A stretch of DNA of 64,000 nucleotides, from positions 32,001 to 96,000 of the IMG/VR virus record IMGVR_UViG_3300022407_006288; one strand, written 5' to 3'. Made by a program: the position numbers and the translations under genes. The notes under the pieces are model-generated. The model ran no database searches. It had not been told where the DNA came from and saw nothing but the letters and a program-made list of their open reading frames with translations. The stretch is from a virus. Of this stretch, positions 15,834-39,460 are shown in pieces (within the stretch, counting starts at the first letter, position 1; each line of letters begins with the position of its first letter).

Positions 15834-16271
15834 ATGAAAATACGAGACATTATATTAAATGAAATATTTGATAGCAATGTCTCGGGTAATCTAGTAAGAG
15901 CAACCTCGGACTTGTTTACTACAGAGGCAACTATAGGCGACCGCAAAATTGTATTTAATGCGGCCGAATCCGACGGAAATAAATGGGAAATTGAGTTTTT
16001 TGAAAAACATCGAGGAAGCATGTCTTACGGAAAAACCGGCTCGGGAAGTGAGATACAAGTATTTTCATTTATTATTGAATCTATAAACGAATTAATTTCT
16101 AGATATCACCCGGATGAAATAACATTTAGTTCACATAAAGCAGACGGTAATAGAACAGATTTGTACAAAAAAATAGTAAGTAAAATTAAGATTCGCGGGT
16201 ATCACCTTTCAGACATAGTGGCTGGGCAACATGCTGATATATTTCGTATTGTCCGGGATGATAACAACTAA
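15834..16271 (+). CDS. Putative internal head protein with a capsid-targeting-like N-terminus
   Basis: Starts MKIRDIILNE; located in the head module. Confidence 0.5.
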   Translation: MKIRDIILNEIFDSNVSGNLVRATSDLFTTEATIGDRKIVFNAAESDGNKWEIEFFEKHRGSMSYGKTGSGSEIQVFSFIIESINELISRYHPDEITFSSHKADGNRTDLYKKIVSKIKIRGYHLSDIVAGQHADIFRIVRDDNN

Positions 16272-16319
16272 TACATTTAAAATATAATTGATAAATATAC
16301 TATATTACAGAGGGTGTAT

Positions 16320-16535
16320 ATGCGTGCTGTGGAAATGCTAACTGAATTTTATGATCCTGCCGATGATACATTGGGTCAGGCAAAAATGGATGACACTCGG
16401 CGCCCGAGATTAACTCTGCATCATTTACAGAAGCTACGAAAATCCAGGGATGCCGAAAAGTACGAAAAAGTTCAGCATTTAGAATTTTTACCAGATATGT
16501 ATGATACCGCTGCTCAGAATGAAGGCGGTTTATAA
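16320..16535 (+). CDS. Small prohead-associated protein
   Basis: MRAVEMLTE...RRPRLTLHHLQKLRK; late promoter at 16290. Confidence 0.55.
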   Translation: MRAVEMLTEFYDPADDTLGQAKMDDTRRPRLTLHHLQKLRKSRDAEKYEKVQHLEFLPDMYDTAAQNEGGL

Positions 16536-17767: not shown

Positions 17768-18403
17768 ATGGCAAATAAACTTTACGAATATCTATCCTTT
17801 GACAAGGCTCATGTAGAGCTTTTAGAAGAAGACGATAAAAAGTCCGGAACTAAAATGCTTTGCATGAAAGGCATTTTTATTCAGGGCGATGTAAGAAATC
17901 AAAATCAGCGTGTATATCCTGCACGCGAGATTGCTCGGGCAGTTAATTCTATTACAGAAAAACTAAGTGGCGGTCAGTCAGTTATGGGAGAGCTCGACCA
18001 TCCGGAAGAGCTTTCTATTAACCTAGATCGTGTCAGTCACCTTATCACAGATATGTGGATAGAAGGTGCAGATGGATACGGAAAGTTAAAGATTGTTTCA
18101 ACTCCGATGGGCAACATTGTAAAAACATTGTTACAGTCGGGTGCAAAGTTGGGCGTCTCTTCCCGTGGTTCCGGTAATGTAAATGACGACGGTAATGTTT
18201 CAGACTTTGAAATTATTACTGTTGACATTGTTGCACAACCAAGTGCTCCAAATGCATTTCCGAGAACTATTTACGAAAGTCTTTATAACATGAAGGGTGG
18301 TTCACGAGTTATTACTACCGCTAAGGAAGCATTAACAGAGGCCGCTGCACAGAAACAGCTTGTTAAAGATCTTCACAGGTTTATTCAAGAGTTAAAAATT
18401 TAG
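17768..18403 (+). CDS. gp21: Prohead protease
   Basis: GIFIQGDVRNQNQRVYP, GELDHP, GVSSRGSG, DIVAQPSAPNA. Confidence 0.95.
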   Translation: MANKLYEYLSFDKAHVELLEEDDKKSGTKMLCMKGIFIQGDVRNQNQRVYPAREIARAVNSITEKLSGGQSVMGELDHPEELSINLDRVSHLITDMWIEGADGYGKLKIVSTPMGNIVKTLLQSGAKLGVSSRGSGNVNDDGNVSDFEIITVDIVAQPSAPNAFPRTIYESLYNMKGGSRVITTAKEALTEAAAQKQLVKDLHRFIQELKI

Positions 18404-18414
18404 GAGAACTCAAG

Positions 18415-19533
18415 ATGGCAAAAAAAATTGATGAGATCTTGAGTGAAAGCGTAGGATTGTCCGAAGAAACCAGAAGCCAAATCGCAGGCTTATGGGAGGC
18501 AAAAATTTCCGAAGCTCGTGATGAAGTTGCTGCAACACTCCGTGAGGAATTTGCACGTAAGTTTGAACACGACAAGGGAGTTCTTGTTGAATCAATGGAC
18601 CGTTTTTTAACAGACAAAATCCGCGTCGAACTCGAAGAATTCGCAGATGACAAGAGAAAACTTGTCACAGAACGTATTGCTTACAAGAGCAAAATTGTTC
18701 AACACACAGGGATGTTAAACAAATTTATCACAGAAACTGTAGCAAAGGAAATGCGAGAGTTTTACTCTGAAAAGAAGACAATGAAAGAAAATTTCAAGAA
18801 ACTTGAAAATTTCCTACTAAAGCAACTTGCCGAAGAAATTCGTGAGTTCCGTTTAGATAAGAAGTCTTTGGTAGAGCAAAAAGTCAAGATGGTTACCGAA
18901 GGTAAGCAAAAGCTACAGGAAACAAAAGTACAATTTATCAAGCGCGCCGCTACTATTATTGAGTCTAACATTGAAAAGACTCTACAAACAGAAATCAATC
19001 AATTCAGGGATGATATTCGTATTGCCCGAGAAAATGACTTCGGTCGTAAGATTTTTGAAAGTGTCGCTGCTGAATTTATGACTTCGCACTTAAACGAAGG
19101 AACCGAACTTAAGAAGCTGCAAAAAGTATTAGAATCAAAAGACATGCAAATTAAACAAATTAACCAATCAGTTAAGAAGAATAAGAGCATTATGGAGAAT
19201 CTTGATACAAAATTAAAAGCCACTCAAGATCTTGTCGAAAGACAAAAAGTTATGAACGAATTATTAGCTCCTTTATCGAAAGATAAAAAGGCAGTAATGA
19301 AAGAGTTACTTGAATCAGTACACACAAAAAGCTTGCAAACTACATACAATAAGTATCTACCAAGCGTTTTAAATGAAGCTATCGAACGTAAACCTGCAGC
19401 TACCAAGCCACAGTTAAACGAAGCAACATTGTCTGCTAGTACAGGTAACAGAGCGAGGGTCGCTCAAAATGGAGATGCTGAAGACTCTTCGGATCTACAG
19501 AAGATTTTGTCCTTAGCCGGAATTAGAAAGTAA
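18415..19533 (+). CDS. gp22: Prohead core scaffold protein
   Basis: Coiled-coil protein between protease and major capsid genes; ENDFGRKIFE motif; C-terminal ILSLAGIRK. Confidence 0.8.
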   Translation: MAKKIDEILSESVGLSEETRSQIAGLWEAKISEARDEVAATLREEFARKFEHDKGVLVESMDRFLTDKIRVELEEFADDKRKLVTERIAYKSKIVQHTGMLNKFITETVAKEMREFYSEKKTMKENFKKLENFLLKQLAEEIREFRLDKKSLVEQKVKMVTEGKQKLQETKVQFIKRAATIIESNIEKTLQTEINQFRDDIRIARENDFGRKIFESVAAEFMTSHLNEGTELKKLQKVLESKDMQIKQINQSVKKNKSIMENLDTKLKATQDLVERQKVMNELLAPLSKDKKAVMKELLESVHTKSLQTTYNKYLPSVLNEAIERKPAATKPQLNEATLSASTGNRARVAQNGDAEDSSDLQKILSLAGIRK

Positions 19534-31765: not shown

Positions 31766-32005
31766 ATGGAATTAATAGGCTGGATTGGAAGTGCATTGCT
31801 TGCTTTGTGCGGTGTGCCATTAGCATGGCAAACTATCAAACAAAAACATGCTCGCTATATGTCAAATACATTTTTGGCCATGTGGTTAATTGGCGAAATA
31901 TTGACCTTTGCCTATATTTTACCTAAAAGGGATTACCCTTTACTGCTAAATTACAGTCTAAACATTGTGTGTCTTATGATTGTGGTTAGGTATAAATTTA
32001 AATAA
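31766..32005 (+). CDS. PQ-loop / SemiSWEET-like three-helix membrane protein
   Basis: IGWIGSALLALCGVPLAW...PLLLNY; three hydrophobic segments; PQ appears as PL. Confidence 0.65.
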   Translation: MELIGWIGSALLALCGVPLAWQTIKQKHARYMSNTFLAMWLIGEILTFAYILPKRDYPLLLNYSLNIVCLMIVVRYKFK

Positions 32006-34602: not shown

Positions 34603-36354
34603 TCAGGCGCCGGTAGTCTTCATGATGTAGCAGAGTGCATAGTATGCTGGTACATTTTTACCAGTACCTGATACCCCACTATTAGTGATAGTATGATTGT
34701 GTCCTCCTGCTGCACTAGTTCCTAAATTGGGAGCAGAAACACCTCCGACCCAGCCTTGGGTGTAAGATCCACCATTATCAACACTAAATAAAAAATTAGC
34801 ACCAGATGAAAGGTGAGTGTGATTACCAACAGCACCTAGGGTGTGCGTATGGTCAACAATCACAGCATCATCACTACCACCCGAAGTTAACGCAGTAGCC
34901 GCATTTGCCCCTCTTATAAACATGCCCACCAGGTTGGGTGTGCTATTGGTACCATCACACAACGCCCAACCTGTGGGAATGGTAGCAGCAGTACCATTCC
35001 ACATGATGATTGCACCGTAAGGTAAAACGTTATGAACAAATGCAGTGGTGGCCAGTGCAGTGCTCTTAGTGTTTGCTGCCATTGTGGCGCCGGTGTTGGC
35101 GCTGCCGTCAATACTAACTCCTGTTAAGGTCTGAGATGCACTTACACGAGTCAAAGAAATATCTGTAGTGCCAATATATAGACTGGAGTTACCTAAAACT
35201 GTTCTTGGTATTGTGCCTATTAAATTTTCTGCCGGTAAAATTGCATATGCCGGCGCCCAGGTCAATGTTCCTGACCCGTTAGTGGTAAGAACATTCCCGT
35301 TTGCACCACCAGTTGCCGGGAATGTATAAGTTTGTGCGTTAAGTGTTACAGCACCAGACACTTTAAAAGTACCAGTAACATCCAGTGTATTGGTTGCAGT
35401 ACCACCAATACCAACATTACCGCTAGCATCAATACGCATACGTTGTGTATTATTTGTACCAAATACCAAAGGAAATGCTCCGGGTGTAAACACCGCACCA
35501 GCACCACCAGCATCAAACAACACACCACTATTTAATGATAATATAGAACTACCGTTATTGCTAATATTAGCATATGCGTTTCCAGATCCGGATGTGTTTA
35601 CAATATCTAAATTGGCCTGCGGTGTAGAAGTCCCAATACCAACTTGTCCGTTACTTTTAATTGTTAATCTTGGTATATTTGTTAAAGCAGAATCTTTAGT
35701 TCCAGATACGGAATTAGAAAATTGCCAATCGCCGGTTGTTTTATCAAACCCCAGCTGCCCGGCAAATCCGGTTGATGAATATTTATTGGCACCATCGTTA
35801 TATCTATTTGCCCATAGCAGTATTTGGTTAACATTACCAGTATACCAATTTACCTGATTTGCTTGAGTACTTGACCCAATAGCAACTCCGGGCCCATATA
35901 TTTCAAACTCAGCGCTTGTAGGTGGCAAATCAATCCACTGATTACTATCCCAATAACTTATTTTTTCTTTAGTTGAGTCATAATATGTTTGACCATCTGC
36001 GGGTGCAGTTGGTGCAGTTGCCCTTGGTTCAAAAGTAACACTGCCAAAGGCCACATCCATCCCAACACCAGAACCCGCTACCTTAACCCATGTGGGGCTT
36101 CCCTTAACATCACTTGTGTTATAATTTAAAAAATTATTATTGGTACCAGGCTGAAACCATATTTGGCCCTTGATGGTATTAGCAGGACTAGTTGTGCTTG
36201 ATGCAAAATTTTCTAACAAATCTACTAAATCCTGATCAACTGGTGATCCATATCCGGAGTAATGTCTTCCCGGAAGTGACAGACTAGTTTCGGTATTTAG
36301 GCTATTATCGAGAACTATAATAGAACCACCGGAATAGTTAATTGTGTATGACAT
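34603..36354 (-). CDS. Tail fibre paralog A with a collar-type C-terminus
   Basis: Shared N-terminus; C-terminal LPYGAIIMWNG...PTGWALCDGTNSTPNL...NVPAYYALCYIMKT. Confidence 0.78.
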   Translation of the reverse strand: MSYTINYSGGSIIVLDNSLNTETSLSLPGRHYSGYGSPVDQDLVDLLENFASSTTSPANTIKGQIWFQPGTNNNFLNYNTSDVKGSPTWVKVAGSGVGMDVAFGSVTFEPRATAPTAPADGQTYYDSTKEKISYWDSNQWIDLPPTSAEFEIYGPGVAIGSSTQANQVNWYTGNVNQILLWANRYNDGANKYSSTGFAGQLGFDKTTGDWQFSNSVSGTKDSALTNIPRLTIKSNGQVGIGTSTPQANLDIVNTSGSGNAYANISNNGSSILSLNSGVLFDAGGAGAVFTPGAFPLVFGTNNTQRMRIDASGNVGIGGTATNTLDVTGTFKVSGAVTLNAQTYTFPATGGANGNVLTTNGSGTLTWAPAYAILPAENLIGTIPRTVLGNSSLYIGTTDISLTRVSASQTLTGVSIDGSANTGATMAANTKSTALATTAFVHNVLPYGAIIMWNGTAATIPTGWALCDGTNSTPNLVGMFIRGANAATALTSGGSDDAVIVDHTHTLGAVGNHTHLSSGANFLFSVDNGGSYTQGWVGGVSAPNLGTSAAGGHNHTITNSGVSGTGKNVPAYYALCYIMKTTGA

Positions 36355-36450
36355 AGCAAGTTTTCTCCATTTTGCTTATTTATCATTTAGTACAAGGATA
36401 ATAATTTATTAATGTTTGTAGATAAATACTTTTTTAATCAAGGATACGTT

Positions 36451-36840
36451 ATGAGATTAGATGAAATTATTAATGAAGCCGGCGAGGTTATTGATCGGCC
36501 GCCAGTAAAACAGCAAGAAGAAGTTCCACTTTATGTGCCAGGTGGTGCAACTGTTATGATTTTAAATGATGATGTAACTCCTGCCGAAGTTGTTGTTGCA
36601 GCCGTAATGTACGGAACAGGACTCAGCGCCGGTGAAGCTGTTCGCAGAATGGAACAGGCACATCAAGGTGGATGGGCAGCAGTTGCCAGTTATGCCAATC
36701 GCGATGTTGCTGAAACAGTTGCATCAAAAATTGAAAATCATGCACGCAATAATACCAACTATGATCACTATAGACGTTTTGTAAATTTTCATGGACCTTG
36801 GCCGCTAGCAGCAGAAGTTATGGATGCAGATCAAACATAA
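36451..36840 (+). CDS. clpS: ClpS-family N-degron adaptor
   Basis: VMILNDDVTPAEVV...M..AH (Asn-to-His spacing 32 as in E. coli ClpS), DVAET; AAGGA RBS; late promoter at 36421. Confidence 0.8.
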   Translation: MRLDEIINEAGEVIDRPPVKQQEEVPLYVPGGATVMILNDDVTPAEVVVAAVMYGTGLSAGEAVRRMEQAHQGGWAAVASYANRDVAETVASKIENHARNNTNYDHYRRFVNFHGPWPLAAEVMDADQT

Positions 36841-36849
36841 AATCCATAA

Positions 36850-36877
36850 TTGACAAAGACAACAGTTACTGTATACT
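36850..36877 (+). promoter_or_regulatory. Sigma70-type promoter for tRNA-Ser
   Basis: TTGACA-16 bp-TATACT, ending 9 nt before the tRNA start. Confidence 0.7.
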
Positions 36878-36885
36878 AGCAGAAC

Positions 36886-36973
36886 GGAGCAATGCGTGAA
36901 GGGTTAAACGAACAGATTGCTAATCTGTGACTGCGCAAGCGGTCTGTAGGTTCGAGTCCTACTTGCTCCGCCA
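36886..36973 (+). tRNA. tRNA-Ser(GCT)
   Basis: Acceptor GGAGCAA/TTGCTCC; anticodon arm ACAGA-TT-GCT-AA-TCTGT; long variable arm; GGTTCGAGTCC; CCA encoded. Confidence 0.93.
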
Positions 36974-38930: not shown

Positions 38931-39029
38931 ATAGCAATAAAAGGACCAAAATTAACCAAGACACGAGCCAAAAAAGTTAAAACTATGGCAACACGTGCCG
39001 CAAAGAAATCTCTTCGTATGAAGAAGTAA
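38931..39029 (+). CDS. Basic micro-peptide with a putative AUA start
   Basis: (M)AIKGPKLTKTRAKKVKTMATRAAKKSLRMKK*; AGGA 7 nt before ATA; TATAAATA promoter upstream. Confidence 0.45.
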   Translation: MAIKGPKLTKTRAKKVKTMATRAAKKSLRMKK

Positions 39030-39273
39030 GGAATTGTTGTAATTCCGGCAAAACAAAGGCGGGCAAGACGGCGGTTCGATTCCGCCCAGCTCCACCAAAA
39101 GCATATTGTAGAAACACACGAGCAGGTTTCACACTACCGCTGGTTACGTATAGAATCGTAAGTGGGTGTAGGCAGTATGCTTTTGATGGGGCTGACCAGG
39201 TTTTCGATTGCGCGAGATAGTGGAGCAGGCAACACAGTAGGCGATGACTGTCAATCAAGCAAAACTCGTAAAT

Positions 39274-39354
39274 GCAAACGCAAATACAACCGAGTCTCGC
39301 GTCGTGTTAGATCTTTCAGCTTTGGAAGACTCTGATATGATGATCGCTGCTTAA
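39274..39354 (+). other. tmRNA tag reading frame ANANTTESRVVLDLSALEDSDMMIAA*
   Basis: Translated from the GCA resume codon. Confidence 0.8.
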
Positions 39355-39402
39355 GAACCAGCAACTCTGAGGTTTGATCTAACCTTATAACCAAACTAGA
39401 TC

Positions 39403-39428
39403 AAGCAGGAGCTTCGGCTCCTGCTTTT
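39403..39428 (+). terminator. Terminator with UUCG loop ending the tmRNA
   Basis: AAGCAGGAGC-TTCG-GCTCCTGCTTTT. Confidence 0.85.
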
Positions 39429-39460
39429 ATGATAAATACAAAATAATAACGGGGGTAGGA

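Follow-up and report, generated by a model that had tools for sequence, protein, structure and literature searches.

A gene at positions 36451-36840 of the window (the whole stretch of DNA that was analysed, 64,000 nucleotides corresponding to positions 32,001 to 96,000 of IMG/VR virus record IMGVR_UViG_3300022407_006288) encodes a divergent ClpS-family protein in which the gatekeeper methionine of E. coli ClpS is replaced by alanine. The preferred reading, given a probability of roughly 60% on sequence evidence, is that the product is made late and works as an adaptor or modulator of ClpS type, with an altered specificity pocket, for an unfoldase of ClpA type. Such a protein would dock on the unfoldase, either that of the host or the phage's own (as encoded by relatives), and would redirect or block its choice of substrates, with a selectivity that may be widened to beta-branched or other N-terminal residues. 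The virus record comprises 130,872 bp (GC 38.5%) and is judged to be 33% complete, which corresponds to a genome of ~390 kb. It encodes a T4-type head module (Portal_T4, 339 bits; Peptidase_S77, ~91 bits; Gp23, 319 bits), and 2.1 kb downstream of the ClpS gene lies a two-piece tmRNA matching the betaproteobacterial tmRNA family, which suggests a betaproteobacterial host. The virus is an uncultured T4-type jumbo phage, probably of a betaproteobacterium. The features of the ClpS locus are as follows.

36377-36384, minus strand: divergent GATAAATA, serving by its position a tail-fibre-like gene at 34603-36354 (minus strand)
36421-36428, plus strand: GATAAATA, late-type promoter motif 22 nt before the ClpS start codon, assigned from motif enrichment and position
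36440-36444, plus strand: Shine-Dalgarno-like AAGGA read in the sequence, 7 nt ahead of ATG 36451
36451-36840, plus strand: ClpS-family gene, 129 amino acids plus stop
36451-36477, plus strand: leader, residues 1-9 (MRLDEIINE), I-x-E followed by Ala, resembling the capsid-targeting (CTS) propeptides of T4 (sequence; rules of PMC9026906)
36478-36546, plus strand: remainder of the N-terminal extension (residues 10-32), V-I-D-R-P-P and P-G-G being conserved in the family alignment
36547-36825, plus strand: ClpS core domain, residues 33-125, from AlphaFold secondary structure and Foldseek TM-score
36565-36585, plus strand: N-D-D-V-T-P-A motif, residues 39-45, from sequence and alignments; gcc at 36583-36585 encodes the Ala gatekeeper
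36661-36663, plus strand: His71, equivalent to E. coli His66, an alpha-amino ligand invariant in 87 of 87 relatives
36703-36720, plus strand: beginning of helix 3 (D-V-A-E-T-V, residues 85-90), which corresponds to the motif that contacts the ClpA N-domain (alignments; PMC12493166)
36754-36801, plus strand: family-specific insert, residues 102-117, with a predicted short helix at 105-111 (alignments, AlphaFold model)

Membership of the product in the ClpS family, at the level of the domain, is close to certain. The protein matches the Pfam profile PF02617 with 46.5 bits, twice the cut-off of 23. The NCBIfam ClpS equivalog models score it at only 21-36 bits against cut-offs of 107-159, which makes it a divergent ClpS rather than an equivalog. 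The AlphaFold model, for which 38 relatives were used, has a mean pLDDT of 81; residues 1-18 are disordered (pLDDT < 50), residues 10-32 have no predicted secondary structure, and the core from residue 33 to 125 forms secondary structure with a pLDDT of about 84-96. Foldseek matches of this model at E <= 0.01 are all ClpS-annotated chains except for one titled 'malarial protein', and the TM-score to the matched ClpS chains is ~0.8. Identity to E. coli ClpS is 26%, and the top sequence match across the whole PDB (HMMER) is an engineered mutant, Caulobacter ClpS M53A (3g1b). The reading frame, its start and its identity as a phage ClpS, as proposed in the initial annotation, are thus real. An upstream ATG at 36412 was considered as the start codon and rejected in favour of 36451, since 36412 precedes the promoter motif, AAGGA stands 7 nt before 36451, and the starts of the homologues, all at the equivalent Met with the pattern M-[RK]-[LI]-x-E, agree with 36451.

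Individual residues were mapped by HMMER alignments to solved ClpS chains and by MAFFT alignment with the ClpS proteins of E. coli K-12 and Caulobacter, with results that agree. Phage N39, D40, D41, T43 and P44 correspond to E. coli N34, D35, D36, T38 and P39, while M67 and H71 correspond to Met62 and His66. The distances from the Asn to this Met (28) and to the His (32) are identical in the two proteins, so the exact spacing of N34/D35/D36, M62 and H66 reported initially is borne out by both alignments. Phage A45 aligns on the gatekeeper Met40 and V90 on Lys84, again as first described; D85 and E88 align on Glu79 and Glu82. Met40 is the residue that keeps out beta-branched side chains, according to secondary accounts in two sources (PMC12493166; bioRxiv 2024.06.12.598358). 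When the specificity-pocket residues of Caulobacter ClpS are taken as listed in PMC12493166, nine of the 11 are kept or conservatively replaced in the phage protein. Both of the altered ones have become Ala, namely the gatekeeper Met40 and Caulobacter Val78, the equivalent of E. coli Val65, and by their positions these two changes are predicted to enlarge the entrance of the pocket.

The phage protein belongs to a family that allows these positions to be judged. A word-indexed search recovered 86 relatives at 50-95% identity, all of them metagenomic, so that the family comprises at least 87 proteins including the phage ClpS described here; several of the relatives lie on contigs of 250-370 kb. 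In a full scan of 1.84 billion cluster representatives 46 clusters matched at E <= 0.001 and 11 at E <= 1e-10, and these low numbers indicate a small, well-separated ClpS subfamily. The positions equivalent to N34, D35, T38, P39 and H66 are invariant in all 87 family sequences. Asp36, present in the phage ClpS, is variable across the family. The gatekeeper is Ala in 42 sequences, Phe in 33, Gly in five and Tyr in three, with Trp, Met, Val and His found once each. At the position of Val43, Ala occurs in 19 of the 33 sequences with a Phe gatekeeper versus three of the 42 with an Ala gatekeeper (the sequences are not independent of one another). This covariation suggests compensation within the pocket, and hence a pocket under functional constraint. 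All members also carry an insert of 14-24 residues between helix 3 and the last strand, which bears the pocket residue Leu99 (conserved in 83 of 87), and within the insert residues Y104, D105, Y107, G115, P116 and W117 are conserved.

Because the residues that bind the alpha-amino group are invariant in 87 relatives, binding of N-terminal residues is very probably retained in the phage ClpS, with an altered side-chain selectivity. The earlier proposal of an altered-specificity adaptor holds in so far as the Met-to-Ala gatekeeper is natural and the alpha-amino ligands are invariant; its corollary, that the phenotype of M40A can be read across, does not, because the second pocket change (Val65 to Ala) and the 14-24-residue insert make that phenotype not simply transferable. 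Either feature may alter the shape of the pocket in ways that are hard to foresee.

Contact with ClpA is the second function expected of a ClpS adaptor. The contacts of ClpS with the ClpA N-domain are Glu79, Glu82 and Lys84 (PMC12493166), and in actinobacterial ClpS only the two acidic ones are conserved among the contact residues, according to bioRxiv 2024.06.12.598358. The phage helix has Asp for Glu79, keeps Glu82 and has Val for Lys84; both acidic contacts are thus kept despite the loss of the lysine. In the family the Asp is present in 87 of 87 sequences, the Glu in 85 of 87, and the A-E-T motif of helix 3 is nearly invariant, while the Lys84 position is occupied by Val in 67 members, Ile in 17 and Lys in three. 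The initial annotation noted the Val at Lys84 and considered a decoy; the change itself is no evidence for a decoy, as Leptospira ClpS1 has the same change and still inhibits the ATPase activity of ClpA in a manner dependent on the N-domain (PMC12493166). A related explanation is that the protein is an N-terminus shield or decoy, which would bind N-termini without handing them to ClpA and so protect phage proteins whose N-termini, newly made by the prohead protease, would act as N-degrons if left bare, or compete with the host ClpS. The loss of Lys84 in 84 of 87 members would fit such a role, as would the position of the insert, which adjoins the last strand with its pocket residue Leu99. The near-invariant Asp, Glu and A-E-T of helix 3, however, are difficult to account for unless an N-domain is bound, Leptospira ClpS1 tolerates the Val, and a long extension with Pro-Pro is kept (32 residues precede the first strand, with the Pro-Pro at 17-18), as in ClpS proteins competent for delivery (PMC9663308). 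A shield or decoy is accordingly considered unlikely.

The context of the gene bears on the time of its expression. In the 131-kb record, GATAAATA occurs 29 times on the plus and 10 times on the minus strand, versus ~6.5 copies expected per strand from base composition. This is an enrichment of about 3-fold that follows gene orientation, and nearly all copies lie 5-50 nt before ORF starts, including those of the portal gene, both tail-fibre-like genes and other large ORFs. The canonical T4 TATAAATA is present in 6 and 7 copies on the two strands. The late promoter initially noted for the ClpS gene is therefore upheld as a late-type motif, GATAAATA, that differs from the canonical T4 TATAAATA. 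G001, a complete relative, likewise shows an enrichment of GATAAATA (15 and 49 copies), and there AATAAATA stands 21 nt upstream of the ClpS gene. In 16 relatives the strict form [GT]ATAAATA is absent within 70 nt upstream of ClpS, with an ATAAATA core present upstream in three of the 16. In four other relatives an upstream structural gene ends 2-4 nt before the ClpS start, and ClpS there lies inside a block with a putative sheath-like gene. From the late-type motif, the tail-fibre-like neighbours and the tail module of the relatives we infer that the phage ClpS is made late.

The N-terminus, MRLDEIINE as read from the translation, may point to a further property of the protein. In T4 the first ten residues suffice for capsid targeting, for which positions 4 and 7 are important, whereas processing depends on positions 8 and 10; the prohead protease gp21 cuts after L/I-X-E, and the propeptides are 10-19 residues long (PMC9026906). 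The internal proteins IPII and IPIII of T4 start with M-K-T-Y-Q-E-F-I-A-E followed by Ala, as read from the T4 record. With one gap allowed, the ClpS leader agrees with them at positions 4, 7, 8 and 10 as well as in the residue that follows the cut, and some ClpS relatives start with M-K-T-L-R-E-Y-I, nearer still to IPII and IPIII. The description of the leader as capsid-targeting-like is hence supported at the functional positions. The following genes of the head module are relevant here.

15834-16535, plus strand: two small ORFs with the leader (15834-16271 and 16320-16535), between portal and protease, in the position of T4 core genes 67/68
17768-18403, plus strand: gp21-type prohead protease, Peptidase_S77, which would cut off the leader
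18415-19533, plus strand: head gene in the T4 scaffold-gene position, between protease and capsid genes; its role is assigned from position and it matches no named family

The protein in the scaffold position starts with M-A-K-K-I-D-E-I-L-S-E, close to the ClpS leader, and the protease, scaffold-position and capsid proteins begin with a common K-[LI]-x-E theme. A strict leader pattern has five matches in the six-frame translation of the 131-kb record, all of them at ORF starts and four of them preceded by GATAAATA; the two small ORFs in the position of genes 67/68 are among the five. For the four strict matches inside called genes, all at the ORF start, the probability of such placement by chance is ~1e-3, calculated on a crude gene set. 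In G001 a regular expression for the long style of leader has no match, and a looser six-residue leader motif is found at 20 dispersed ORF starts, mostly without the late motif. The leader codons are AT-rich, and the signal could thus partly reflect expression bias and not a targeting signal. Packaging of the phage ClpS in the prohead, with cleavage by the gp21-type protease, is plausible on these data, if somewhat short of an even chance. In this scenario the protein would enter the core of the prohead, be shortened by the protease and reach the next cell together with the DNA, so that it could act on ClpA as soon as infection begins. The complete form of this idea, in which ClpS is one of several leader-tagged capsid cargo proteins that are trimmed and injected and in which it re-programs or blunts ClpA-dependent proteolysis of the host from the first second, is put forward only tentatively. 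Cleavage behind the leader is predicted to leave the product of the 16320 ORF with an N-terminal Phe and that of the 15834 ORF with an N-terminal Ile, which would give the shield discussed above proteins to protect; if the injection model is true, ClpS could likewise shield other injected proteins whose processed N-termini, predicted to be Phe and Ile, are degrons.

Leader and context can also be read in terms of a ClpS fold co-opted outside Clp proteolysis, for instance as a protein inside the head, where it would bind the termini of peptides in the core of the prohead. More distant clusters (P0098 and P0100) have lost the N-degron residues Asn34, Asp35 and His66 and yet keep the leader, and together with the late or structural gene context this speaks for such a co-option. 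The N-degron and ClpA-contact residues are strongly conserved in the 87 closer members, however, and for the protein described here co-option is quite improbable.

The partners available to the phage ClpS were sought in the same genomes. Clp_N, AAA_2 and ClpP profiles have no match in the 131-kb record, which is uninformative since the record is 33% complete. Among five large relatives the outcome is as follows.

G001 and G004: ClpA of 739-757 amino acids, an AAA_2 ClpX-like protein of 415-418 amino acids, and ClpP (230-261 bits)
G005 (80%-complete record): ClpA and the ClpX-like protein as in G001 and G004, without a match to ClpP
G002 (complete, 368 kb): ClpS without ClpA, and only a weak ClpP-like protein
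G003 (82% complete): no ClpA, no ClpP

Against the ClpA equivalog model TIGR02639 these phage ClpA proteins reach 759-869 bits, short of the curated cut-off of 993; their identity to E. coli ClpA is 40-45%. They contain the two Walker A motifs, the pore loops and a ClpP-docking loop of the IGF type, and in the N-domain the ClpS-contact residues E23, E28, T81 and R86 are all kept. A compensation of the Lys84-to-Val change within the phage ClpA N-domain was considered and rejected, these four residues being canonical. Since relatives have their own ClpA, ClpX-like ATPase and ClpP, the partner of the phage ClpS need not be that of the host; the protein may serve phage-encoded ClpA where this is present and host ClpA otherwise. 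The rewiring of host proteolysis proposed initially is accordingly one option among others, three of the five large relatives encoding ClpA and the ClpX-like ATPase. The suggestion that defence proteins are the targets of the phage ClpS is pure conjecture.

These partners lend themselves to a simpler account, in which the protein is an ordinary intracellular adaptor of phage-encoded ClpAP(X) that is never packaged and provides N-degron selectivity late in infection, for example for clearing processed or misfolded proteins during assembly. The leader would then be no more than the front end of the N-terminal extension on which ClpA pulls. The ClpP, the ClpX-like ATPase and the full-length ClpA of relatives, the last with its ClpS-binding N-domain intact, are in keeping with this account; so are the entry of the ClpS N-terminal extension into the ClpA pore as a degron mimic (PMC9663308), the wide occurrence of the short N-terminal motif in G001, and the placement of cultured jumbo-phage ClpS genes among proteostasis and translation genes. 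Against it, none of the relatives examined has clpS next to clpA (in G001 the two lie at about 205 kb and about 28 kb), and the complete G002 has ClpS without ClpA. The leader, moreover, is conserved, matches the N-termini of head proteins and the T4 CTS, and ends in a protease motif, whereas cultured jumbo-phage ClpS proteins have no leader. The N-terminal extensions of bacterial ClpS proteins are not known to be well conserved in sequence, and in the alignment those of E. coli, Acinetobacter and cultured-phage ClpS differ freely. An unpackaged intracellular adaptor is considered less likely than not.

Set against the ClpS proteins of E. coli and Caulobacter, the phage protein has the same fold, the same Asn34, Asp35, Thr38 and His66, the acidic ClpA contacts and most of the hydrophobic pocket residues, and it shares with bacterial ClpS a disordered N-terminal extension with Pro-Pro. 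It differs from them in the gatekeeper (Ala, in relatives Phe), in the changes of Val65 to Ala and Lys84 to Val, and, as a family, in the 14-24-residue insert, the conserved leader, the lack of a clpS-clpA operon and the late-gene context. The Ala gatekeeper engineered in Caulobacter M53A (PDB 3g1b/3g3p) is natural in the phage ClpS. Other natural gatekeepers include the Tyr of Leptospira ClpS1, which is combined with the Lys84-to-Val change (PMC12493166), and the Arg of Arabidopsis ClpS1; cyanobacterial ClpS2 binds Val and Ile besides Leu, Phe and Tyr. Such cellular paralogues are second copies that work with the ClpA or ClpC of the cell, and none has been reported with an Ala gatekeeper, an insert or a capsid-type leader.

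To our knowledge, phage ClpS proteins are known as annotations only and have never been studied experimentally. ClpS genes in jumbo phages are mentioned in a review (PMC7824862), and that of Atu_ph07 in PMC6102473. A tblastn search with E. coli ClpS finds ClpS in PA5oct-like phages, Atu_ph07, Phosso, GAP32, fHe-Yen9-04 and a Vibrio phage; with the phage ClpS protein as query at E <= 1e-3 the ClpS of cultured jumbo phages was not found. A megablast of the ClpS locus against 50,697 phage records gave no match, and the only tblastn match in the same records, 'Acinetobacter phage MD-2021a', was not counted as a phage relative because it lies in a clpS-clpA operon, between argC and aroF, on a contig of bacterial appearance. 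As in the phage described here, the ClpS domain of PA5oct, Atu_ph07, GAP32 and Vibrio phage 2.275.O is encoded in very large genomes, and cultured jumbo phages with ClpS often carry ClpX, ClpA, ClpP, FtsH and heat-shock genes. Their ClpS proteins, in contrast, lack the leader and the insert and are encoded among translation and proteostasis genes, not structural ones. His66 is lost in three of the four inspected, and the gatekeeper of PA5oct ClpS is Met. In the record of PA5oct, which represents a different lineage, ClpS bears no virion mass spectrometry flag. What was already known is the annotation of ClpS in jumbo phages; new are this subfamily, its leader and its late or structural context.

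The internal proteins IPI-III and Alt of T4 offer the closest parallel to the proposed cargo, with a short propeptide, hydrophobic targeting positions and I-x-E before Ala, as in the phage ClpS. T4 and this phage are also alike in late expression, in a gp21-type protease and in unrelated proteins that bear a common leader. The leader of the phage ClpS is one residue shorter than the T4 CTS, and a proteolysis adaptor as cargo is not known among T4-type internal proteins. The phage ClpS is thus a candidate for the first proteolysis adaptor delivered inside a virion, and if this is true the idea of T4 internal proteins would extend from anti-restriction and ADP-ribosylation to the turnover of host proteins. 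The split between Ala and Phe gatekeepers would in that case represent diversified N-terminal specificity between phage lineages. Irrespective of packaging, the family offers a set of natural N-recognins that share invariant alpha-amino ligands but have Ala, Phe, Gly or Tyr as gatekeeper, and that should be useful for the study of N-degron specificity and for engineering binders of N-terminal amino acids. Some giant phages carry an entire kit of ClpA, ClpX-like protein, ClpP and ClpS, and in the window a phage tmRNA lies near ClpS, a combination that points to a deliberate take-over of protein quality control.

The ClpS gene lies upstream of a tRNA array that includes a two-piece (permuted) tmRNA, which matches the Rfam models beta_tmRNA (111 bits) and tmRNA_permuted (115 bits) and for which ARAGORN predicts a tag of 26 residues with I-A-A at its end. 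A near-consensus sigma-70-type promoter (TTGACA, 16 nt, TATACT; 11/12 positions) may drive the tRNA/tmRNA array via host RNA polymerase.

Window 36850-36877, + strand: sigma-70-type promoter
Window 36886-36973: tRNA-Ser, immediately after this promoter
Window 38934-39429, + strand: two-piece tmRNA

Three ClpS-encoding relatives, the uncultured phage records G001, G004 and G005 (266-363 kb), also encode full-length ClpA proteins comprising an N-domain with canonical ClpS contacts and an IGF-type ClpP loop. A ClpX-like ATPase of ~415 aa is present in all three, and ClpP is encoded by G001 and G004.

G001:C1:27155-29374, - strand: full-length ClpA
G004:C1:240171-242444, + strand: full-length ClpA
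G005:C1:1550-3769, - strand: full-length ClpA

Together with ClpS and these ClpA, ClpX-like and ClpP genes of relatives, the tmRNA suggests a phage protein quality control toolkit and, through its beta_tmRNA match, a betaproteobacterial host. A phage-collection record labeled 'Acinetobacter phage MD-2021a' (CAKLQF020000008.1) contains a clpS-clpA operon flanked by argC and aroF and is probably mislabeled, since it resembles a bacterial chromosome and not a phage. The phage ClpS family to which the window protein belongs occurs in fused form too, as the C-terminal domain (53% identity) of a 397-aa protein, P0091, whose first 280 residues have no Pfam family match.

The enriched promoter-like octamer is GATAAATA, rather than the T4 late motif TATAAATA, with 39 copies in the whole record vs ~13 expected, and relative G001 is likewise enriched in it. 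Copies precede ORF starts, including those of structural genes, by 5-50 nt.

Window 11436, 14071, 22618, 27301 and 36421, + strand: GATAAATA examples
Window 36384, 34473 and 27235, - strand: GATAAATA examples

Leaders of the ClpS type, ending [LI]-x-E, are found on further ORFs. Two of these are small ORFs located where T4 has genes 67/68, and another encodes a protein of 277 aa that gave no family matches. A KTSC-domain protein also has such a leader, which is kept in G001.

Window 15834, 16320, 46430 and 58181, + strand: leader-bearing ORFs
Record position 96802: leader-bearing ORF

In relatives, ClpS sits within a cluster of small genes, nearly all starting with the same leader type (locus L016, 3448-9922, from G004; locus L009, 5631-6387). 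Such clusters recall the variable loci at which T4-like phages encode their internal proteins.
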